Shown: piece by piece, positions 47,290 to 59,885 of the stretch | Numbering within the stretch: position 1 is the first letter of the stretch | Layout: each line of letters opens with the position of its first letter | Origin: a virus | Taxonomy: Duplodnaviria > Caudoviricetes | Direction: 5' to 3' (one strand) | IMG/VR virus record: IMGVR_UViG_3300032038_000010 | Span: 72,946 to 136,945 of that record | DNA: 64,000 nucleotides | Notes under the pieces: generated by a model | The model's database searches: none | Told to the model about the DNA's origin: nothing | What the model saw: only the letters and a program-made list of their open reading frames with translations | Translations under genes and position numbers: made by a program

Positions 47290-47663
47290 ATATAAGAAGA
47301 AAGCAAAAAATGCGGCGACCCAGGCGGTGTATATGGGACTGATCACTGATACCTACGGTATCAGTGATGAAGGTGTCGTATTCTAAAATTTTGAAGAGAA
47401 TACCGTATTCTGAAATCAAAAAAACTTTTGGAGAGAATTTTGCGCAGCACAAGTCATTTTTTCACTTTTTTAAAATTTTCTCCCGAAAATACACCCCCCA
47501 GTAGGACACTAGATGAACAATCTCAAACAAATTCTCTCTTCATCACGACCCGCCGCAAACAAGCCTAGCCGCACAGACTCAGCAAGGCTTGACCATCTAT
47601 TCTTTCATCGAACATTAATCAATAGAACAACACACAACACATAAACTATTTATTAATCAATAG

Positions 47664-47740
47664 AACAAACTAATTAAAATGATTACAAATAAAATAAACA
47701 AACTAATTAAAATGATTACAAATAAAATAAACAAACTAAT
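47664..47740. repeat. 33-bp AT-rich direct repeat (2 copies plus a partial third)
   Basis: AACAAACTAATTAAAATGATTACAAATAAAATA at 47664 and 47697, partial at 47730. Confidence 0.85.
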
Positions 47741-48017
47741 CAAAAGAAATACAATAACAATAGTACATACATAGTATTAGTCTCAGGCTCGCGGTCGGAT
47801 GTCGCGAGCCTCTTTTCATTTATTTGTAACATCTCACCATTTAATTGTTTGACTTTTGCACTTTTATTATACTATACTCGATCCTGAAATGTCAATAGGC
47901 AAAGTGTACAAATTTTATCTGCTATCTTTGTGCAACATTACCTATTGCATTTTTTTCTGCTCTGTGCTATACTATAATCATCAAGAGGAGATAACAAAGA
48001 AAAGGTTGGTAATAAAA

Positions 48018-48158
48018 ATGTTTAAACTTTGGATTGAATGGTGGGACACAGGTCTTAAGGTTGAGGACGAATTCGATACCTATGAAGAAGCAATCAAGGC
48101 AGAGAAGAGTTACTCTAAAATGTATGGATTCATCACATCAGAAATCACTAAAGAATAA
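48018..48158 (+). CDS. Small early protein
   Basis: 46 aa MFKLWIEWW...; follows a promoter. Confidence 0.6.
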   Translation: MFKLWIEWWDTGLKVEDEFDTYEEAIKAEKSYSKMYGFITSEITKE

Positions 48159-48244
48159 AAAAAATAAAAAAAGCACTTGACAAAATCATTAAAAAGTGCT
48201 ATACTATAATCATCAAGAGAGATAAAGAAAGTGAGGTAACACTT

Positions 48245-48415
48245 ATGATGAATGTTCACATTAACAATCTTAAAGAGTATGCAAAAGAGTATAAGTACAT
48301 TGTAGCAAAGGTTATTGATAATGAGCTTTGGTTTTGGGGCGCTTGGGACGACCTGCTTAAGGCTGAGAAGGTAGCTCATGAACTTGGCAATGCTGTTGTA
48401 GTAGCTAACACTTAA
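48245..48415 (+). CDS. Small early protein (ELWFWGAW family, paralog of 49957)
   Basis: GAGGT RBS; YKYIVA...ELWFWGAW. Confidence 0.75.
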   Translation: MMNVHINNLKEYAKEYKYIVAKVIDNELWFWGAWDDLLKAEKVAHELGNAVVVANT

Positions 48416-48648
48416 TCGTAAGAGTAAGTCGAAAGACTTGCTCTTTTATTGCCCTGGCGCGCTGGCGTCCGGGCCAGCGCGCTTTTCCATTATACCATAG
48501 CCATCGAGTTTTGTCAATAGGCAAATTGTACAAAGATCTGAGGGAAAAATATCCCAAAATTGGGCAAAAAATTTTTCAAAAACCGCTTGACTTTTCGGGC
48601 GCATGATGGTATAATTAAATCATCAAAAGAAAGAAAGAGGTAAATAAA

Positions 48649-48780
48649 ATGACAACTACTTACTACAGACTTAGATACAGAAATGGTGAACATGGTGCTT
48701 GGACAACTGATTATGAAAGAATTGTGAAAGATGCAAAATTCTTTAAAGCTGAAATTGAAACAAGAGAATTTAAGAGATAA
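48649..48780 (+). CDS. Small early protein
   Basis: GAGGT RBS; 43 aa. Confidence 0.6.
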   Translation: MTTTYYRLRYRNGEHGAWTTDYERIVKDAKFFKAEIETREFKR

Positions 48781-48858
48781 AAATCTCTTAAAACTCTTGA
48801 CAAGAGAAAAAAGATCGACTATAATTAAATCATCAAAAGAAAGAAAGAGGTATACAAA

Positions 48859-49026
48859 ATGACAAATTGCTTATACTGTAGAAATGCTGATACATATCCA
48901 TACATTGTAGCATCAGATGATTGTGAAGAGTTTGAAGAAAACTTTGAGCATCATTGGGAAATGATGGATGACATTGAGCGAGAAGAATATAACTCATACA
49001 TAGATGAATGTGAAGAGGATGAATAA
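48859..49026 (+). CDS. Small, highly acidic early protein
   Basis: GAGGT RBS; 55 aa, D/E-rich. Confidence 0.65.
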   Translation: MTNCLYCRNADTYPYIVASDDCEEFEENFEHHWEMMDDIEREEYNSYIDECEEDE

Positions 49027-49113
49027 ATCCCAAACATTTTTCAAAAAAGTGTTGACAAACAAATCAACCCATGATATAATAATTATAGAGTTAAGGAAAA
49101 GAGGTAAATAATT

Positions 49114-49296
49114 ATGTATAGATATTTTATTATGAGCGAGTCACTTGTTATTGAGGGTTGTACTTCTTGTGAGTGCAACACTTACCCATTAAGTAAGGAA
49201 GTGTGTGAGCGCAAGATGGCTCAAGCACTGAAGTCAATTGCACTTCATGGTGCTAGACGAGTTATTCGCTCGTGGATTGAAGAAGTTACAGAGTAA
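49114..49296 (+). CDS. Small early protein
   Basis: Promoter plus GAGGT RBS. Confidence 0.65.
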   Translation: MYRYFIMSESLVIEGCTSCECNTYPLSKEVCERKMAQALKSIALHGARRVIRSWIEEVTE

Positions 49297-49751
49297 CTTC
49301 TTCAAAAACAATAAAAAAAGTGTTGACAAACAAGATCCAATGTGCTATTATAATAATGTAAGGAAGAGAGGTGTTGAAAATGAGAAGTCCCCCTAATTAA
49401 AACCCACAAGTTCAGAATAGTGGCAACCTACCAGTAGGAGAGACCCACCGCGCTTCAGCCTATCCCCTTTAGGGCGCGAAAACAATTCAGGCGGGGTTGA
49501 GGACAAGGGGATGACCTCAACCAAGAGAAAGAGTGCGACAGAATAAGTTCGGCACTCTTTTTTCTTTGTGCGGGCGGCGCGTGCACTGGCGTTTCGCGCC
49601 GAAATTTCAGTATACCACATGAGCCACATTTTGTCAATAGGAAATTTGCACAAAAATTTTATCTAGTTGATCCTGAAATTTTGTGCAATTTTACCACTTG
49701 CTTTTTCTTTTTGTTTGTGTTATACTATAATCAGAAAGTGAGGTAAGTAGT

Positions 49752-49907
49752 ATGGCACAAGAAAAGATAGTCCTCGTAAAGGTATTATTAAATATTACAA
49801 GAGATAGACAAACTGTTTACAACTTTGTTAAATTTTGTAAACTTGCTAGCTATGAAAAATCTGTTGAATATTTTTTAAGAATTTCTAAAAAAGTGCTTGA
49901 CATTTAA
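49752..49907 (+). CDS. Small early protein
   Basis: GAGGT RBS; 51 aa. Confidence 0.5.
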   Translation: MAQEKIVLVKVLLNITRDRQTVYNFVKFCKLASYEKSVEYFLRISKKVLDI

Positions 49908-49956
49908 ATTAGAATCTGTTATAATATAATCATCAAGAGAAAAGGAGATACAAATC

Positions 49957-50112
49957 ATGATTAATAACCTTCCTACTTACGCTAATGAATACAAGTACAT
50001 TGTTGCTCGTAGAGTTGATGGAGAGCTCTGGTTCTGGGGAGCATGGAATGACCGCAACAAAGCAAATGAAGTTGCTATCGAGATTGGCGGTGAAGTGGTC
50101 ACAAATCAGTGA
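49957..50112 (+). CDS. Small early protein (ELWFWGAW family, paralog of 48245)
   Basis: AAGGAG RBS; shared motif. Confidence 0.75.
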   Translation: MINNLPTYANEYKYIVARRVDGELWFWGAWNDRNKANEVAIEIGGEVVTNQ

Positions 50113-50190
50113 CCACCAAATAAAAAAGAGTTGACAATTTAATCTTTATGTGATATACTTAAATCATCAAAAAAAAGAGAGGTAACAATA

Positions 50191-50436
50191 ATGACTTACA
50201 TTATTTCTATCAATGCTGGACACAATTTTGAAATCACTGGTGATGAAGCTGCTTACGAAGCTTATACAAAGGCTTGTGAATTTGCTGAAACTATCGGTGC
50301 GAGAGTTGATTTTCTTGATGCTGAAACTGGTGAAGTACTTGCATCATCTGACGATGATGAAGATTATGAGCCTGATGACATTGACTCAGATTTCGGTTAT
50401 GACCCTTACATAGGAGAATGTACTTACGATTGTTAA
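50191..50436 (+). CDS. Acidic small early protein
   Basis: DAETGEV motif and D/E-rich tail ending GYDPY.G. Confidence 0.75.
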   Translation: MTYIISINAGHNFEITGDEAAYEAYTKACEFAETIGARVDFLDAETGEVLASSDDDEDYEPDDIDSDFGYDPYIGECTYDC

Positions 50437-50656
50437 GCAAGGCACCCCGAAAGAGGCGCTTTTTTGTTTGCGGTGTGCCGCGGTGGGGCGCCGCGGCACG
50501 AAATTTCATTATAACATACCTGAGCTACTTTTGTCAATTGATATTTTGCACAAAAATATTCTTGAATTAATCCTAAAATTTGTGCAAAATTACTACTTGT
50601 ATTTTACATAGAAAGTGCTATACTATAATCAGAAAGAAAGAAAAGAGGTAAACAAA

Positions 50657-51103
50657 ATGATGAACGAAAAGATAATCGCTTTTGATATGGATGGGACTTT
50701 CGTAGACCTCTATGGCGTTGATAATTGGTTACAGATGTTACAGAATAAAGAAACTACTCCTTATGAGATTGCAAAGCCTATGTATGATATGAACGATTTT
50801 AACAAGGCTCTCAATCGGTTGAAAACAAAAGGTTTCAAGATTGTGGTGATTAGTTGGTGCGCAAAGGTTAATGATAAAGCCTATGACGCAAGAGTAAGAA
50901 AAGCAAAAAAGAATTGGTTAAAGGCTTATAACGTACCTGTTGATGAAATTCACATTGTAAAGTATGGAACACCTAAAGCCTATACAATTAAAGGTAACGC
51001 AATCTTAGTTGACGACGAAAAACCTAACAGAGATAAGTGGCATAGAGGTCGTACAATAGACGCAACAAAAAATATTCTTGAAGAGCTTGAAAAAATCGCT
51101 TGA
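50657..51103 (+). CDS. HAD-family phosphatase / 5'-nucleotidase-like (paralog of 52963)
   Basis: FDMDGT motif I; ILVDD motif IV. Confidence 0.8.
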   Translation: MMNEKIIAFDMDGTFVDLYGVDNWLQMLQNKETTPYEIAKPMYDMNDFNKALNRLKTKGFKIVVISWCAKVNDKAYDARVRKAKKNWLKAYNVPVDEIHIVKYGTPKAYTIKGNAILVDDEKPNRDKWHRGRTIDATKNILEELEKIA

Positions 51104-51158
51104 CAAAATCATAAAAAGATGATATAATAAAATCATCAAAAGAAAGGAAGAAAAAACA

Positions 51159-51395
51159 ATGACAAGAGAAGAAAAAATGGCAATAACAATACTAACGAGT
51201 ATGCGTGATGGCTTGCATGAAACAGGTAAAGATTTTCCGTATCGGGATGAGTGTATCCCATATATGAAAAAATCTTGTGACATGGCTATTGAAGCATTAA
51301 GACGACAAGATAGAATATTACAGATTCTTGATGATTGTGACCTTGAAGCATGGGAAATGTTGGAAAAGATAAAGGGGGTGATGAGAAATGACTAA
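51159..51395 (+). CDS. Hypothetical protein (MTREE...DMAIEAL type)
   Basis: Promoter plus RBS. Confidence 0.7.
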   Translation: MTREEKMAITILTSMRDGLHETGKDFPYRDECIPYMKKSCDMAIEALRRQDRILQILDDCDLEAWEMLEKIKGVMRND

Positions 51396-51606
51396 GACAA
51401 CATGGATTATCACCGACCCCGATGAAAACATCAAAACTGAGCTGACCTATTACCACTTTGGAAAAGAACCTAGGGTCCCAAGCTGGTACATGGAAAGGGG
51501 TAAGGTTTATGAAATTGAAATGATTGGGAGTTTCAAACTCCTCCGCACTCCGAAACTGTTTTTCAAGTGCCTTACCCATTTTTGCATCATGAAAGCCGCC
51601 AATTAA
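51388..51606 (+). CDS. Hypothetical protein
   Basis: Coupled ORF followed by a terminator. Confidence 0.6.
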   Translation: MTKTTWIITDPDENIKTELTYYHFGKEPRVPSWYMERGKVYEIEMIGSFKLLRTPKLFFKCLTHFCIMKAAN

Positions 51607-52066
51607 AATGGCGGTTTTTCTCTGTGCGGCGCGCCGCTCTCGCCTGTCGCGGCGCGAAATCTCCATTATACCACACGTTGCACCTTTTGTCAATAGGAAA
51701 AATGCACAAAAATTCATTAGACTAGATCCCGATTTTTTGTACAAAATTACTACTTGTATTTTGAAAAATTTTTTGCTATAATGTATTTACAAGGTAAGGA
51801 AAGAAAAGCACTTCACTTCTCGGCGGTTCCGCCACAAAAAAAACTTCAAAAAAGTGCTTGACAAACAAAAAACCTTGTGATATAATATAATCAAGAAGTG
51901 AGAGATAGAAATGAAGGTCATTGAGTTGACAAGTGCGCATAGCCAACCCAGACCTCCCCACCAAATAAAAATCTTAAAAAACTTCTTGACAAATAAAACT
52001 TAATATGTTATAATGTATTTACAAAGTAAGAAAACAACAAATCATTTTAAGAAAGAGGTGTTCTCT

Positions 52067-52417
52067 ATGGCAAACTCAAACAAGGTTACTAAGGCTCAAA
52101 TGTTCGCTCTTATCGCTGAGAAGGTCGCTGACAATCAAGAAATGGTTGACTTCCTTAACAAGGAAATCGAGCTTGTTAATAAGCGCAACGCTCGCAAGTC
52201 CTCTAAGCCTTCTAAGAAGGATGTTGAGAATGAAGCTATCAAGGCTTCTATCGAGGAAGTCCTGTCTAATGCCGAAAGTGGTATGACCGTTACGGAAATC
52301 ACCAAGGCTCTTGACGGTGACTTCTCTACTCAGAAGATTAGCGCACTGCTCCGTCAGATGGACGGCGAGGTTGTCAAGACCTACGAGAAGAAGGTTGCCA
52401 AGTTCACGCTTGCGTGA
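52067..52417 (+). CDS. Winged-HTH protein, paralog 1 of 3
   Basis: MTVTEI...STQKISALLRQ...VVKT.EKK...F; strong codon bias. Confidence 0.8.
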   Translation: MANSNKVTKAQMFALIAEKVADNQEMVDFLNKEIELVNKRNARKSSKPSKKDVENEAIKASIEEVLSNAESGMTVTEITKALDGDFSTQKISALLRQMDGEVVKTYEKKVAKFTLA

Positions 52418-52681
52418 CCTTCGCTCTTCGGAGGGTAACAATTGAATAATGTCAATAGGCAAGGTTCACAAAACCTTGCCTATTTTTTTGTGCAATTTTT
52501 TACTTGACAAATGAACTGCGGCGTGCTATAATGGCGGCCCGCGGTTGATCGCCGCGGGCTGTTTTTTGTCAAGTAGTAATAGTTCACAAATTTTCCATCC
52601 AAATTTTGTGCAATTTTACCTCTTGCATTTATCCCGTAATGTGCTATAATTAAATCATCAAAAGGAAAGAGGTAAACAGTT

Positions 52682-52912
52682 ATGACTAGACACTCTATTG
52701 AAAACCTTCAGTATTTTGTTCTTATGGCTCTTATTCTCGCTCAGTGTGTTGTGGGAGAGGCCTTCTATATTGGGCAGGGTATTTATTTAATAGCAAATGC
52801 GCTTTCAGTTTTTCGTTCTTTTGCTTTAAGGCGTCCCGCAAGTGATAAAGTTAAAGATGTCGCTTGTTTGGCTATTACAATCGGTTTGATACTTTTTAAA
52901 ATTTTTGCTTGA
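52682..52912 (+). CDS. Small membrane protein
   Basis: Hydrophobic segments; GAGGT RBS. Confidence 0.7.
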   Translation: MTRHSIENLQYFVLMALILAQCVVGEAFYIGQGIYLIANALSVFRSFALRRPASDKVKDVACLAITIGLILFKIFA

Positions 52913-52962
52913 CAAACTTTCTATATTATGATATTATAATTATAGAAAGAGAGGTAAGAGTT

Positions 52963-53415
52963 ATGGAAAAACAGTTAGTGCTTGATATGGACGGAACATT
53001 CGTTGATTTGTATGGCGTTCAAAATTGGTTGCCAATGCTCAAGGTAGAAAGTGTAGAACCTTACGCAACCGCTAAACCGCTTTATGATATTGATGTAATC
53101 AATGCTTTACTTAATATTCTTAAAGGCTACGGCTTCCGCATTATCGTTGTTTCTTGGACTGCTAAAAATGGCTCAAGAGCCTACAATCAAGCGGTTAGAA
53201 AAGCTAAAATTGAATGGCTCAAGGCTCACAAAATGCCGATTGATGAAATTCACGTTGTCAAGTATGGCACACCAAAATATCGACTTGTCAAGGGTAACGC
53301 AATTCTCATTGATGATGAAGAACCAAACCGCAATAGTTGGACAAGAGGAAAAGCAATCGACCCCACAGACGGGCTGATTGATAAATTGCTCGATTTGGTA
53401 CTCGAAAACTCTTGA
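52963..53415 (+). CDS. HAD-family phosphatase / 5'-nucleotidase-like (paralog of 50657)
   Basis: LDMDGT and ILIDD; shared EIHVVKYGTPK. Confidence 0.8.
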   Translation: MEKQLVLDMDGTFVDLYGVQNWLPMLKVESVEPYATAKPLYDIDVINALLNILKGYGFRIIVVSWTAKNGSRAYNQAVRKAKIEWLKAHKMPIDEIHVVKYGTPKYRLVKGNAILIDDEEPNRNSWTRGKAIDPTDGLIDKLLDLVLENS

Positions 53416-53472
53416 CAAAACCGCCGCAAGGCGATATAATAAAATCACAAAAGAACAAAAGGAGGTTCTAAT

Positions 53473-53613
53473 ATGACAGCAGTATCTTATGAAATCTACA
53501 ATGCGTTCGGAACTGTGGTTGAGGTTGTAAAGTCTTGGGAACTTGCAAAGGCAAGAGCAAAGGCAGTTGGAGGAGCTTACAAAATTATTTATACGCCAGT
53601 TAATGCATTTTAA
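53473..53613 (+). CDS. Small early protein
   Basis: AGGAGG RBS; 46 aa. Confidence 0.65.
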   Translation: MTAVSYEIYNAFGTVVEVVKSWELAKARAKAVGGAYKIIYTPVNAF

Positions 53614-53820
53614 TGCGGGCGCCCGCTCAGAAATCACTCCTGGGCGGGTTTTTTGTGGCTCGCGACCGGGCGCCGCGAGCCATTCTTTCATTATAGCATA
53701 CCTATACCACTTTTGTCAATGGTAAATTTGCACAAAAAATTTCTTAATTTAATCCCAAAATTGTGCTTGACATTTTTCTTATCTTTTGTTATAATGTATT
53801 CAGAAAGTGAGGTAAGGCTT

Positions 53821-54069
53821 ATGAACAATATTAAACTCATTAAAAGCGATAATAATTATAGATTAGAGTTATGGGGCGCAAGCACTAAACACCCTGATGT
53901 TGTTTATGATATGGAAAATGACATCAAAGAAGGGCGGTTTTGCCTTTGCCCTTATGAAGAGAGCAAAGAGTGGAACTTATACCAGTGGGTTCTCTACTGC
54001 GCAAGCCGTACAATGTGGAGAACAACAGCGATTCAGTTAGTAGAGTATGCGAATATTTTACTGAATTAA
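53821..54069 (+). CDS. Hypothetical early protein
   Basis: GAGGT RBS before ATG 53821. Confidence 0.65.
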   Translation: MNNIKLIKSDNNYRLELWGASTKHPDVVYDMENDIKEGRFCLCPYEESKEWNLYQWVLYCASRTMWRTTAIQLVEYANILLN

Positions 54070-54438
54070 TTTTAAGAGGGCGGGCGACCGCTCTCTTTTT
54101 TGTCGGTCTGTGTGCGGCCGCCCACAGACCGAAATTTTATTATAGCACACCTAGCGACATTTTGTCAATAGGAATTTTGCACAAATATTTTCTTGATTTG
54201 ATCCTGATATTTGTGCATTATTACCAGTTGACTTTTACAGCTGACCGCGTTATAATGTATTCAGAAAGTGAGGTAATATTTATGAAGATTATCCCTATTG
54301 TAATTAAGCGCAAACTAAAAACAGAAGTCAATCTTGATGAATTAAGAAAAAACTTTTAGAAAAAAATCAAAAAATGCTTGACAAGGCTTCAATTATGTGT
54401 TATACTAAAGTCATCAAATGAAAGAGAGGTTAAAATCC

Positions 54439-55134
54439 TTGGATAAAAGAATTAGTTACAAAATTGTGCTTGATACAGAAACTTGCCCTATTGATAAAGA
54501 CTTTCAAGGGGTTGACCCTTCTAATATGTGGGTGTACGATTGCGGTTGGGCGGTTGTTGACAAGCGGGGGAATGTTTACAAAACAAGGTCTTTTGTAAAC
54601 GCTGACATTTTCCTTGGTGAAAAGGACTTGATAAAATCGGCTTACTATGCGAACAAAATTCCTAAATATTGGGAAGAAATCAAAAGTGGAAAGCGGATTT
54701 TGACAAGTTTCTACAATATCCGCAAGGCTCTTTTGGAAGATGTGGAAATGTTTCACGTGAAACAAGTCTACGCCCACAATATGCGGTTTGACCTTGGTAC
54801 ATTGAACGTAACAGAACGCTGGCTCACAAAATCAAAATATCGCTACTTTTTTCCCTATGGCGTTGAAATCTGCGATACGCTTAAAATGTCAAGAGATGTA
54901 ATCGCTACAATGCCAACTTACAGAAAATTCTGTGAAGAAAATAATTACTTCACAAAAAATGGTCAAGTTCGGCTTACTGCTGAAATTATTTACAGATTTA
55001 TTACAAAAGATAATGACTTCACTGAAAAACATACAGGGCTTGAAGATGTGATGATTGAGAAAGAAATTCTTGCCTACTGTTTTAAACAACATAAAAAAAT
55101 GCGCCGTTTATTATACGATAAGCAGGCCGCATAG
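54439..55134 (+). CDS. DEDDh 3'-5' exonuclease
   Basis: LDTET, AHNMRFD and HTGLEDV motifs; TTG start after GAGAGG; ends at TAG before a terminator hairpin. Confidence 0.85.
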   Translation: MDKRISYKIVLDTETCPIDKDFQGVDPSNMWVYDCGWAVVDKRGNVYKTRSFVNADIFLGEKDLIKSAYYANKIPKYWEEIKSGKRILTSFYNIRKALLEDVEMFHVKQVYAHNMRFDLGTLNVTERWLTKSKYRYFFPYGVEICDTLKMSRDVIATMPTYRKFCEENNYFTKNGQVRLTAEIIYRFITKDNDFTEKHTGLEDVMIEKEILAYCFKQHKKMRRLLYDKQAA

Positions 55135-55727
55135 TCAAGAGGGCAGGTTGCACAAAAAGCGGCCTGCCTATTTTATTACTTTTGCCTATTGACTTTTGGC
55201 GGGCCGCGTGTGACCGCACGCGGCCGAAATTCCATTATACCACACGCTGAGCCATTTTGTCAAGCGATTTTTTCAAAAATATTGCACAAATTTAAATCCT
55301 AAAATTTGTGCAATTTACCTATTGTAAAAGCAAAAATTTTTTGCTATAATGTATTTACAAGGTAAGGAAAGAGAGAGCGCCAAGGCTTCAAGTAAGTTTC
55401 TGTTTGTGGGTATACCCCATGGGTAGGGTGCTGAAAGAAGTACACCGCAAAGGAATTTCAAAAAAAATTTCAAAAAACTCTTGACAAACCAAAAAGTAAA
55501 TGCTATAATGTATTTACAAGATAAGAAAAGGGGTGCTACTTAATGAATAAGTGTTGTATGTAAGCGCAACAAGAGTTGCAAGTAGTAGCGGTAAATCCGA
55601 TTGTAAATCTACTTGCTTGAAGAATGAGCGCAACGACATAAAAAATTTCTTCAAAAAAACTCTTGACAATTAAAAACTTCTATGATATAATAAGTACATA
55701 AGATAAAAAAAGAAAGAGGTATTATTT

Positions 55728-56072
55728 ATGACAAAGGTAGAAATGTTTAACGCAATCAAGGCTGTTTCAGAGGTTTCCGCAAATGCTGATATGGTGGCTT
55801 TTATTGACCACGAAATCGAACTGCTTTCCAAGCGTAGCGGTAAGAAGTCTGAAACCAAGACTCAGAAGGAAAACAAGGGCATCAAGCAGGCAATCCTTGA
55901 GGTTCTTGCTACTCTTGACGCTCCTGTGACTGTATCTGAACTCATCAAGGCTGATGACGTTTTCGCAGACCTCTCCAATCAGAAGATATCGGCTCTTCTC
56001 CGTCAGCTGATTGAAGATGGCAAGGTCGTCAAGACCACCGAAAAGAAGGTATCACGCTTCGCTCTGGCGTGA
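55728..56072 (+). CDS. Winged-HTH protein, paralog 2 of 3
   Basis: TVSEL...SNQKISALLRQL...VVKT.EKK. Confidence 0.8.
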   Translation: MTKVEMFNAIKAVSEVSANADMVAFIDHEIELLSKRSGKKSETKTQKENKGIKQAILEVLATLDAPVTVSELIKADDVFADLSNQKISALLRQLIEDGKVVKTTEKKVSRFALA

Positions 56073-56346
56073 GCCTGCCACAACTGAATAATGTACACAC
56101 CCCTACAGCAATGTAGGGGTGTTTTTTGTGCTTGACTTTTCGGGCGGTTCGCGGGCGGCCGCCGCGAACCGAAAACTCCATTATAACACTAGTCGGTCAT
56201 TTTGTCAATAGTAATTTTGCACAAATTTTCAGTATCTAGCCTCCCGAAATTTCGTGATTTTTACTATTGATTTTTTTTATTTTTTATGTTATAATTTATT
56301 TACAAAAGATAAAGGAGAGCAATTATGTATCGGAAAGGAAACAAAA

Positions 56347-56493
56347 ATGATAGAAAGTTTAATTAGAGAGCTTTATAGGTTTCAAGATACGTTAGCTGAA
56401 TTTGTTCCTTCTGAAATTTGGCAATCATGGGCGGAGAATAATGAAAAAATAATTTTGTATTTAGAAAAAAAATATGAGAAAGAAAAAGATTAA
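56347..56493 (+). CDS. Small early protein
   Basis: AAGGA RBS. Confidence 0.5.
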   Translation: MIESLIRELYRFQDTLAEFVPSEIWQSWAENNEKIILYLEKKYEKEKD

Positions 56494-56573
56494 ATCTTCT
56501 TCTTTTTTTAAAAAATACTTGACAATACATTCCGCCTGTGGTATTATAATTACAGAAAGAGAGGGAAAGCGTT

Positions 56574-56912
56574 ATGGTAGACTTTGAGAAACTCATTCAG
56601 ACTATTATGAAAGAAGCAGAAGCAGACGGCGAGCCTGTAACCTATGAAGAAGCCAAAGAAATGGCGGAAATGGAAGTCAAGGCAAAGAAAGAAGTCAAGA
56701 ACGTCGTTCAAAGTGGCAAGAAGCGCAAGCCTAGCACAAGAGAGCGCAAGGTTGATGAAGAAAAGGGCGCAATCCTGCGTGACATCAAGGCTTTGCTTGA
56801 AGAGTTAGGCGCAATTAATACAGAAATGAAAACTGAAACAGAAGTAAGTTTTAGTTTCAATGGAAGTGAATATTCTGTGAAGTTGACAAAACATAGACCC
56901 AAAAAGGCTTGA
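56574..56912 (+). CDS. Hypothetical early protein (paralog of 58124)
   Basis: RERKVDEEKG...DIK.LLE.LGA...KTETEV.F.FNGSEY.VKLTKHRP. Confidence 0.8.
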   Translation: MVDFEKLIQTIMKEAEADGEPVTYEEAKEMAEMEVKAKKEVKNVVQSGKKRKPSTRERKVDEEKGAILRDIKALLEELGAINTEMKTETEVSFSFNGSEYSVKLTKHRPKKA

Positions 56913-56969
56913 CAAAAATTAAGCCTTATGATATACTTTAATCATCAAATGAAAGAGAGGTTAAAGCCA

Positions 56970-57164
56970 ATGTTTACAACTATGAATGATAGTGTATTTA
57001 CAACAAGACATAATGAAGTAATGGACGCTTTGCTCTTCACTTATGCGAAAGCCCACCCCGGAATCATACAGGCGGATGGCGAGGGTGGTTATAGGCCTAT
57101 GAATTTATGGGGGAAGTTAATTCTTGAACACTTGCGAGATTGTGATTTGATAACAGAAGTATGA
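56970..57164 (+). CDS. Small early protein
   Basis: GAGGT RBS. Confidence 0.6.
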   Translation: MFTTMNDSVFTTRHNEVMDALLFTYAKAHPGIIQADGEGGYRPMNLWGKLILEHLRDCDLITEV

Positions 57165-57520
57165 ACCTACACAGCAGGGCGACCGCGCCCTACTGTTTTG
57201 ATGCCTCGCGATCGGAGGTCGCGAGGCGAAATTTCCATTATAACACACGCTGCAAAATTTGTCAATAGTAAAATTGCACAAAAAATTAAAATATTTTATC
57301 CTAAAATTTGTGCATTTTACCTATTGTAAAAGTAAGAAATTTTTTGTATAATATCTATAGAAAGTGAGAGAGATAAAAGGAGCGAAGGTCAAGGCGCTCA
57401 AAAAAATCTCAAAAAAAATAAAAAAAGTCTTGACAAGCAAAAGAAAAAATGCTATAATGTATTTACAAGGTAAGGAAATAACTCCTTATCAAAATCAATC
57501 AAAAGAAAGAGGTGTTTCTT

Positions 57521-57868
57521 ATGACAAACAAGATTACTAAGGCTGAGATGTTCGCACAGATTAAGGCAGTTGCAGGTGTAGCACAGAACGCTGATATGGT
57601 AGCGTTTCTTGACAGAGAGATTGAGCTTGTCAACAAGCGCAATACTCGTAAGTCCTCCAAGCCGTCCAAGACACAGACTGAGAACGCTGGCATCAAGGAC
57701 TCTATCGCAGAGGTTCTCGCCAACGCTGATGGTGGTATGACTGTTACAGAGATTGCAAAGGCTCTTGATGGTGACTACTCCACTCAGAAGGTGTCTGCTC
57801 TGCTTCGTCAGATGGACAACGTAGTTAAGACCTATGAGAAGAAGGTGGCTCGTTTCACCCTCGCCTAA
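57521..57868 (+). CDS. Winged-HTH protein, paralog 3 of 3
   Basis: Very similar to the 52067 product. Confidence 0.8.
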   Translation: MTNKITKAEMFAQIKAVAGVAQNADMVAFLDREIELVNKRNTRKSSKPSKTQTENAGIKDSIAEVLANADGGMTVTEIAKALDGDYSTQKVSALLRQMDNVVKTYEKKVARFTLA

Positions 57869-58123
57869 GAGGCACAACAACTGAATATTGTCAAGGGGCA
57901 AGGTATACAAACCTTGCTCCTTTTTTTTGTGCAAAATTACTACTTGACAAATTTAATCAAGAGTGGTATAATCGGTGGCTCGCGGAGGGACGCCGCGAGC
58001 CATGATTTGTCAATTAGTAATACTAGCCAAATTTTTCATTTGACTTTTGTGAAAAATTACTACTTGATTTTTTCCCAAAATTTTTGTATAATACTTATAG
58101 AAAGTAAAAAAGAGGTGATAAGT

Positions 58124-58516
58124 ATGACATACAATTTCAATGGCAAGACACTTAATATCCCCGATACTGAGATTGAAAAGTCCATGAAGTGCCTGGAACT
58201 TACTAAAGATGAGGCTATTCAGCTCTGGCTTGAAGACAACGACTATGAAGTGAATGAAGAAGTCGAAGAACTCACCGCCAAGGCAAAAGCAAACAAGACA
58301 GACCGAGTACAGGCATCCGCAGGCAAAAGAAAGAAGGCTGAGAGAGAGCGAAAAGTTGATGAAGAAAAGGGTCGTCTGCTAGGTGATATTAAGGTACTTC
58401 TTGAGGGGCTTGGTGCTGACATCCACAGCGTAAAAACCGAAACTGAAGTCGCTTTTGCCTTTAATGGTAGCGAATATACTGTAAAACTCACTAAACATCG
58501 CCCTCCCAAGGCATAA
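58124..58516 (+). CDS. Hypothetical early protein (paralog of 56574)
   Basis: GAGGTG RBS; shared C-terminal domain. Confidence 0.8.
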   Translation: MTYNFNGKTLNIPDTEIEKSMKCLELTKDEAIQLWLEDNDYEVNEEVEELTAKAKANKTDRVQASAGKRKKAERERKVDEEKGRLLGDIKVLLEGLGADIHSVKTETEVAFAFNGSEYTVKLTKHRPPKA

Positions 58517-59144: not shown

Positions 59145-59885
59145 TGCGGCGGCCCCCGATAGGTAATGCTATCGGGGGCCGTTATTTTTTGCGGCACGCT
59201 TTTGGCTCTGCCAGTGCCGCAAAATTTTATAAAAGTCAACCCTACATATTTCACAAATCGAAACCCAGAAAATTGTGCAATTTGCACAAATCCCGAAACG
59301 TCACTATGCTTCAAGCTCTGCTCGAAGCATTATATGGCTTGGCCTCATGGAACGGCGCGCTGCCGGCCGTAGCTGCGCCGTTTTTCCGACCCTAGGCCTA
59401 TATGCACTTTTTATATGGATGCTTGACTTAGATGTTTGGACTCCCGCTCTCCCGAAACTGAATATATGGCAGCAGGAGCTTGACAAATGAAAAAATTTTT
59501 GATATAATATTAAAAAAAGACTCTCAAGCTGCCGCTTGAGAGTTAAATGCTTCTGGTTCTATTGTATATATACTACTTATATGTATGGATTAGGCAAAAA
59601 TGTATCCCCCTATTATTATATCAAAAATTAAGTAAAAAGTCAAATCGGCATTTTCTGCTTAGATTTTTTAACCCAACGATTCAATCTTCAAAATGACAAA
59701 AGGAAAAGCACAGAGCTTAGTAAACTAAGCTCTGTGCTTAATAAAAATCTACTGGGAGGCCGCAGAAAATATGAAATTCAAGAGCAAGTGATAACGGTAA
59801 CGGGTGAGTATGCGGCAGCCGCATATAAGGTTAAGTAAATTTGCCAAGATTTTTTGACGAACGATTATTTGTTCAAAAACGCCAA

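Follow-up and report, generated by a model that had tools for sequence, protein, structure and literature searches.

The stretch of DNA considered here (the window) comprises 64,000 nucleotides, positions 72,946 to 136,945 of IMG/VR virus record IMGVR_UViG_3300032038_000010, and forms the last 64 kb of this 136,945-bp phage contig. Its early region carries ten occurrences of a cassette of ~170 bp, one component of which is a GC-rich hairpin faced by a strong promoter that drives no gene. It is proposed tentatively, at a probability of roughly 45%, that the cassette is a block-boundary insulator that would halt host RNA polymerase between transcription blocks and would also serve as a shuffling module resembling the promoter-early stem-loop (PeSL) cassettes of T4-type phages. 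The combination of block-end position, fixed polarity, perfect gene-less promoter, constant divergent partner and strand-symmetric palindrome is best explained by a boundary or insulator element, and it disfavours RNA as the purpose of the unit, which had been one view of a first-pass annotation of the sequence.

All convincing genes of the array region are early, small and on the plus strand, and almost all possess a promoter of their own and a strong ribosome site. A consensus scan from 46 to 60 kb found 90 promoter-like sites, as against 39.8 +/- 6.8 in shuffled sequence, and 23 of the 90 matched the consensus at 12/12 positions. Perfect TTGACA-17/18-TATAAT sites number 22 on the two strands between 47700 and 58100, where Markov simulations give 0.0073, and only four occur in the other 45 kb of the window. 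The ten minus-strand consensus promoters between 47.8 and 57.3 kb that the first-pass annotation had described as facing no open reading frame (ORF) are all present, with -35 boxes starting at 47895, 48517, 49637, 50537, 51693, 53719, 54168, 55263, 56208 and 57265. Nine are 12/12 matches and the remaining one (49637, TATACT) is an 11/12 match; a TG extension is present in nine of the ten. A GC stem of 7-13 bp begins 6-9 nt past the -10 box in nine cases, so that the description of promoters reading directly into a hairpin holds for all but the promoter at 47895, whose hairpin (47785-47811) lies ~55 nt downstream. Each of the seven stem pairs quoted in that annotation was found in the sequence, and its two plus-strand versions are real (52504-52563 and 57944-58003). 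In the 137-kb genome as a whole, all pure-GC hairpins that lack a T-run adjoin a -10 box in the array region. The promoters and hairpins of the array are far above chance. The features are as follows, in order of position, the hairpins being given without strand.

47785-47811: GC hairpin 1, GGCTCGCG/CGCGAGCC; T-run on the plus strand, hence a plus-strand terminator too
47866-47895, minus strand: reverse promoter 1, TTGACA-18-TATAAT without TG; atypical, hairpin ~55 nt downstream
48420-48445, plus strand: canonical terminator of gene 48245-48415
48456-48483: GC hairpin 2
48489-48517, minus strand: reverse promoter 2, 12/12 plus TG
48587-48615, plus strand: forward cassette promoter, divergent partner of reverse promoter 2
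49528-49560, plus strand: terminator of the non-coding unit from promoter 49323
49575-49601: GC hairpin 3, 7-bp stem, 27 nt in total
49609-49637, minus strand: reverse promoter 3, TATACT
50442-50459, plus strand: terminator hairpin of gene 50191-50436
50474-50500: GC hairpin 4, GTGCCGCGG/CCGCGGCAC
50508-50537, minus strand: reverse promoter 4
51591-51620, plus strand: terminator of operon 51159-51606
51630-51656: GC hairpin 5, 27 nt
51665-51693, minus strand: reverse promoter 5
52504-52532, plus strand: co-directional promoter, -10 abutting the hairpin (0-4 nt)
52533-52563: GC hairpin and T-run, terminator-like on the plus strand
53621-53649, plus strand: canonical terminator of gene 53473-53613
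53655-53683: GC hairpin 6, GGCTCGCG/CGCGAGCC
53690-53719, minus strand: reverse promoter 6
53767-53795, plus strand: forward cassette promoter, partner of reverse promoter 6
54074-54097, plus strand: canonical terminator of gene 53821-54069
54103-54132: GC hairpin 7, CGGTCTGTG/CACAGACCG
54139-54168, minus strand: reverse promoter 7
54228-54256, plus strand: forward cassette promoter, partner of reverse promoter 7
55141-55169, plus strand: canonical terminator of gene 54439-55134
55202-55225: GC hairpin 8, GGCCGCGTG/CACGCGGCC
55234-55263, minus strand: reverse promoter 8
55322-55350, plus strand: forward cassette promoter, partner of reverse promoter 8, TTGTAA -35
56097-56122, plus strand: canonical terminator of gene 55728-56072
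56145-56171: GC hairpin 9, CGGTTCGCGG/CCGCGAACCG, 27 nt
56180-56208, minus strand: reverse promoter 9
56267-56295, plus strand: forward cassette promoter, partner of reverse promoter 9, TTGATT -35
57171-57196, plus strand: canonical terminator of gene 56970-57164
57202-57228: GC hairpin 10, GCCTCGCGA/TCGCGAGGC
57237-57265, minus strand: reverse promoter 10
57324-57352, plus strand: forward cassette promoter, partner of reverse promoter 10, TTGTAA -35
57944-57972, plus strand: co-directional promoter, -10 at 2 nt from the hairpin
57975-58003: GC hairpin, GGCTCGCGG/CCGCGAGCC; weak T-rich tail

Read on the gene strand, the cassette consists of the canonical terminator of the preceding gene, a GC palindrome of ~27 nt that begins 2-3 nt beyond it, the spacer GAAATTTCC, and the reverse promoter, behind which lie TTGCACAAA, some 30 bp of intervening sequence, TTTGTGCAA and, 8-9 bp further, the forward promoter. 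This forward promoter combines a weak -35 with a TG-extended -10 and has TTTGTGCAA 8-9 bp upstream of its -35, and from the spacing of the elements each promoter of the back-to-back pair owns a TTTGTGCAA element at about -45. The cassettes divide the early region into ~12 transcription blocks. A block starts at the forward cassette promoter, continues with one to three genes that each possess a perfect promoter preceded by an A-rich region, and ends in the canonical terminator, the GC hairpin and the gene-less reverse promoter, which points back at the block. Plus-strand terminators were predicted only at block ends, bar one weak 6-bp match within gene 54439-55134. The expectation that the reverse units would go on to reach the terminator of the upstream gene was correct for nine of the ten, which meet its reverse complement. 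The abundance of perfect promoters (22 in 10.4 kb), together with the ten promoters of the array that have no gene, could alternatively be read as a polymerase sink, titrating host sigma-A holoenzyme away from host genes during takeover. This is highly unlikely, as the 13 perfect gene-driving promoters in the 46-60 kb scan already do so, and neither the fixed hairpin distance nor the fixed polarity nor the block-end position would be required of a sink.

Relatives were found in IMG/VR with a pattern derived from the cassette backbone, and the search of related phages that had been advised for the hairpin family was fruitful: the module recurs at no fewer than 119 loci, many of them on 50-200-kb gut or rumen contigs. 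The counts that follow are for the loci listed. Of 1250 distinct strong promoters, 91 have their first perfect GC hairpin beginning 7-9 nt past the -10 and 42 have it at 3-5 nt, the rate at other distances being ~0.5 per position; such a hairpin occurs anywhere in only 4.4% of random 90-mers. Spacing and polarity go together. Of 96 units with the 7-9-nt spacer, which is AT-rich with the consensus GGAAATTTC, 90 run antisense to the local genes, and of 50 with a GC-rich spacer of 0-5 nt, 41 are co-directional. Both kinds of promoter often flank one hairpin as a convergent pair with -10 boxes 36-38 nt apart, and Phass-1 also carries convergent pairs around a single hairpin. A ribosome-binding site and start codon follow 8 of 179 hairpin promoters compared with 677 of 1071 others, and the hairpin-promoter units are non-coding. 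A divergent forward promoter accompanies 96 of 102 units, in 65 of these 96 at 40-69 bp behind the reverse -35. In some relatives 27-nt GC hairpins stand at such sites without a consensus promoter. Gene order at the cassettes differs between the window and the relatives L030 and L025, and the blocks contain paralogues. BLAST searches for near and distant relatives among cultured phages found none with the module; the sole matches were weak, to Phass-1 and two uncultured faecal contigs. Thomasclavelia phage TR-TP1 has no reverse promoter-to-GC-hairpin unit, and a description of the module was found neither in the Phass-1 paper (PMC10607447) nor by a full-text literature search. The first-pass view of a family of promoter-to-hairpin cassettes is thus upheld, the family being conserved and non-coding, with predicted transcripts that begin with the hairpin.

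The simplest alternative is that the hairpins are nothing but plus-strand terminators and the reverse promoter-like sites have no function. The hairpins at 47785, 48456 and 52533 do have plus-strand T-runs, and promoter-less copies in relatives are often followed by T-rich tails. This explanation is nevertheless scarcely credible: all but one of the ten -35/-10 pairs are perfect, over 100 independent units elsewhere carry such pairs, and most of the hairpins lack a U-run and already lie behind a canonical terminator. A back-up terminator was also considered and rejected, as the 9 nt of tail hold 4.2 T as against 3.7, with no rise where no canonical terminator precedes; the GC hairpin is therefore not an ordinary back-up terminator.

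The hairpins are constrained in length and pairing. Total length peaks at 27 nt (46 of 112), and there is a trade-off between stem length and loop length (r = -0.48). The claim that stem sequence varies with pairing kept is borne out by 103 distinct 5' arms among the 112 hairpins, by the presence of both C-G and G-C at most stem positions, and by close relatives, in which there are 22 compensatory double changes, seven G-U changes and seven breaks. MAFFT and RNAalifold misaligned the stems of 11 units from the window because loop sizes vary, and were replaced by anchored counts and a gapless alignment of 24 units taken from L006-L122 and the window. Here 99.5% of cells are paired, a percentage that is partly circular since the units were chosen for hairpin formation, and both sides have changed in 55 cells compared with 15 +/- 3.3 in shuffles. 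The pattern indicates that selection acts on pairing and not on sequence. In the same alignment a CG step is nearly invariant at stem positions 6-7 of the 27-nt hairpin, mirrored at 21-22, and C-G and G-C are favoured at positions 1-2. The hairpins are also rich in words resembling the sites of rare cutters (CCGCGG, TCGCGA, GCGGCCGC and GGCGCGCC).

This diversity bears directly on the proposal that the units produce small 5'-triphosphate hairpin RNAs as decoys or mimics for host defence or RNA-processing proteins, CRISPR-repeat mimics being one example. Many copies of strongly expressed, small structured RNAs would indeed result, and the 52504 unit is a complete mini-gene of promoter, hairpin and T-run. 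With 103 of 112 stems differing, however, no single host RNA can be mimicked, most units are without a defined 3' end, and the Rfam search that had been suggested for the hairpins matched no family when run on the window: nothing reached gathering score and the sole match with E<=1 was a chance-level one to STnc260. Decoys of this sort are very unlikely. A variant in which sequence is free, the phage flooding the cell from 10-12 perfect promoters with 27-nt 5'-triphosphate GC-hairpin RNAs that saturate a structure-reading host factor, is decidedly improbable; the factor might be an RNA-sensing defence system or a 5'-end-dependent RNase, and the RNAs would be a structure-only decoy family in gut phages.

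Strand symmetry is the second property of the stems. They are near-perfect Watson-Crick palindromes, with five G-U pairs on the gene strand and four on the reverse strand out of 1454 pairs. Canonical terminators at the same loci (n=282) have 28 G-U as against nine A-C in 2541 pairs (p = 0.0026), the signature of folding on one strand, and G-U is 3-fold more frequent in them than in the GC hairpins (Fisher p = 0.010). The symmetry of the GC hairpins agrees with an element that has to fold on each strand, or with one acting as DNA. At the central positions, taken over all loci, G-U (63) and A-C (49) are both ~1.6-fold above shuffled partners, which would be consistent with an origin of the hairpins as longer perfect palindromes that decay from the centre outwards. 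A role at the DNA level, in which the ~27-bp palindromes and their backbones are PeSL-like recombination or shuffling sites, or cruciform or origin-type elements, and the promoters mere neighbours, is in keeping with these decayed centres, with palindromes that are perfect as DNA and with a total length fixed at 27 nt. The paralogues within blocks, the gene order that varies among relatives at the cassettes and the PeSL precedent point the same way. It is improbable all the same, for it leaves the exact 7-9-nt and 0-5-nt spacing, the polarity rule and the perfect conservation of the promoters unexplained; any repeated cassette can cause shuffling as a side effect, and no link to an origin or recombinase was found.

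Folding of the predicted reverse RNAs gives a GC hairpin at the 5' end, then a linker rich in A and finally the terminator of the upstream gene in reverse complement (z-scores -2.4 to -5.2). Over the initial 400 nt of all ten putative transcripts neither a credible ribosome site nor an ORF was found, there being just two weak combinations of Shine-Dalgarno sequence and TTG in total (37 and 7 codons), and read-through of TAG opens no convincing ORF. No minus-strand terminators were predicted in the array except for weak matches at 55314, which is the TTGCACAAA/TTTGTGCAA repeat of cassette 8, and at 56637. Bidirectional upstream terminators that would give defined reverse RNAs of 70 nt were rejected, as only a background number of A (1-3) is present in the 8 nt preceding the stem. 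The first-pass annotation had expected defined RNAs of 35-90 nt; with the reverse units lacking a terminator this part is not supported, and it stands only for the 52504 unit, the sole closed promoter-hairpin-T-run mini-gene of the array. No tRNAs were found. A search of contigs with an 81-amino-acid early protein returned one ENA contig (136,689 bp) and no RNA-derived contigs, and bovine-gut metatranscriptome runs contain 5-19% of the sequence words, which is evidence of neither habitat nor expression. The possibility that the reverse promoters serve a minus-strand terminase operon on the left was set aside, 2 kb of plus-strand genes intervening.

The main rival to the insulator takes the RNA as the product: a hairpin-capped RNA, complementary to the terminator and 3' end of the preceding block's last gene, would tune or shut off the mRNA of that gene, as lambda OOP RNA does, its 5' GC hairpin shielding it from 5' exonuclease attack in Firmicutes and its duplex with the mRNA being cleaved by RNase III. 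Several features agree with this. In 91 units the distance from the expected start site to the stem is 0-3 nt, folding of the predicted RNAs gives an antisense-terminator hairpin besides the 5' one, and the orientation is always convergent on the upstream gene. At the pair next to the loop, G-U is found 36 times on the reverse-strand RNA as against 14, which would favour folding of the reverse RNA, although that strand is G-rich, and over all central positions G-U and A-C are both enriched. Against it, reverse RNAs without a terminator of their own are of undefined length, convergent-pair and co-directional units have no antisense target, the stems are equally free of G-U on either strand, the same hairpins are found without a promoter, and the promoter would be active simultaneously with its target. 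On balance an antisense product is unlikely, if a serious contender.

For the insulator the following sequence of events is envisaged. Host sigma-A RNA polymerase would fire often from the reverse promoter and transcribe the hairpin within the first 30 nt, and the nascent hairpin would hold this polymerase in place, where it would collide head-on with any polymerase that had passed the terminator of the block. Folding of the palindrome in both RNAs is proposed to fix the collision site. Further polymerases, trailing in from the strong promoters on both sides, would then dislodge the collided complexes, and the outcome would be that the heavy flux of one block is kept out of the next, separately controlled block. 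The co-directional units at 52504 and 57944 would follow PeSL logic, upstream read-through meeting the whole hairpin (and, at 52533, a T-run as well) and their own transcripts starting inside the stem, since the -10 abuts it. The conserved backbone of the cassette would supply homology for the shuffling of blocks between phages. Pausing, collision and release at the hairpin are inferred by analogy with E. coli, where head-on collisions of polymerases stop read-through between convergent genes, a hairpin element trapping polymerases from either side and positioning the collision and trailing polymerases releasing the complexes (bioRxiv 10.1101/2022.10.23.513370).

Several caveats apply to the insulator. 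The collision mechanism is known for the E. coli polymerase and real convergent genes, not for a gene-less promoter or a Firmicutes polymerase, and the footprint of a polymerase on the reverse promoter takes in most of the hairpin DNA, which makes the geometry of the encounter uncertain. The 7-9-nt spacing puts the stem at the extreme 5' end of the RNA, as in the 5' stabiliser of a functional RNA. Nothing limits the entry of reverse transcripts into the upstream gene, which would cost its expression. What follows the hairpin on the gene strand is GAAATTTCC and not a U-run, and the G-U counts are small.

Four known systems come closest to the cassette. PeSL cassettes were described in the T4-type phages RB49 and phi1 (Arbiol et al. 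2010, PMC2839356; Comeau et al. 2014, PMC4122927), where the promoter is packed on a stem-loop that ends upstream transcription: transcripts from upstream meet the whole stem, those of the cassette itself start inside it, and the cassettes mediate gene shuffling (PMC2839356). Both are repeated intergenic cassettes of an early, ORFan-rich region with a strong host-type promoter and a GC-rich stem-loop at a fixed place; the 12 units between 47.8 and 58 kb combine a sigma-70-type promoter with a stem-loop in an early, hyperplastic region and recur in related phages. The co-directional units at 52504 and 57944, and stem-loops around the -35 box in relatives, share PeSL logic. These stem-loops are seen in L122, L027, L042 and Phass-1 (L125), where many early promoters have the -35 hexamer in the loop of a GC stem-loop of the type GGGG-TTGACA-N-CCCC, which would by analogy be a PeSL-like fusion of terminator and promoter. 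However, 10 of the 12 units of the window face backwards without driving a gene, and the PeSL arrangement, in which the promoter runs with the genes and serves the ORF downstream, is shared only by those with a 0-5-nt spacer. The present cassette is moreover a back-to-back promoter pair with TTGTGCAA elements and a hairpin length fixed at ~27 nt, and its phages are TAG-recoded with Firmicutes-type hosts and not T4-like myoviruses.

The second system is that of the collision-driven bidirectional terminators (Wang, Watters, Ju and Liu, bioRxiv 10.1101/2022.10.23.513370), with which the cassette would share converging transcription across a hairpin able to fold in both RNAs, U-runs not being strictly needed. 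Converging consensus promoters are predicted at the cassettes, the hairpin between them is foldable in both transcripts, and high initiation on both sides would supply trailing polymerases. The E. coli units differ in being real genes with a measured effect, whereas here a predicted gene-less promoter lies 7-9 nt from the hairpin and the polymerase is of Firmicutes type. The likeness to lambda OOP RNA lies in a short non-coding unit with a constitutive promoter of its own directed at the 3' end of an early gene, as the promoters of the reverse units are at that of the upstream gene. OOP RNA has its own terminator and a defined length of 77 nt. The reverse units lack a terminator of their own for a discrete short RNA, number 10-12 per genome and put the hairpin first. 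The host-takeover module of Bacillus phage SPO1 likewise has small early genes and many strong host-type promoters near a genome end, but no reverse promoter-to-GC-hairpin unit in its first 14 kb, where a single co-directional promoter is followed by a hairpin.

Several further observations concern the control and content of the blocks. Every cassette promoter has TTGTGCAA half-sites ~45 bp upstream, placed 8-9 bp upstream of the -35 in either member of a divergent pair, and one TTGTGCAA site at 59273-59289 of the window is a perfect palindrome, TTGTGCAAATTGCACAA. These half-sites are probably the operators of a regulator. Three paralogous proteins of ~115 amino acids (52067-52417, 55728-56072 and 57521-57868), which have only sub-threshold, winged-helix-like Pfam matches, are candidate regulators of the cassette promoters. 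Other paralogous pairs are 50657-51103 and 52963-53415, which are HAD/NT5C-like, 56574-56912 and 58124-58516, and 48245-48415 and 49957-50112. A Pfam search with ten early proteins gave nothing above threshold. Three forward cassette promoters lead into leaders of 80-130 nt without an ORF before the next promoter (51753-51860, 55322-55480 and 57324-57430), several of which have GTATTTACAAGGTAAGGAAAG in common, and a six-codon ORF (MNKCCM) lies at 55543-55563. The unit at 49323-49565 has a perfect-type promoter whose sole ORF spans six codons (MRSPPN), followed by ~160 nt of GC-richer, apparently structured RNA without an Rfam match and then a terminator. An AT-rich tandem repeat of ~34 bp, at about 47640-47760 and just upstream of hairpin 1, was seen by eye.

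If the insulator proposal is true, a dedicated gene-less promoter supplies the opposing polymerase, and terminator, two-strand hairpin and convergent promoter together would make a natural, compact transcription insulator. Programmed polymerase collisions would then extend from chance convergent genes to a purpose-built element, the PeSL idea would reach the phages of Firmicutes, and synthetic biology in Gram-positive hosts would gain a portable insulator part. Should the RNAs have a function of their own, they would represent a large new family of phage RNAs. For annotation, many antisense consensus promoters in these genomes are not signs of missed genes, and the module occurs widely among gut and rumen phages, with at least 119 loci.

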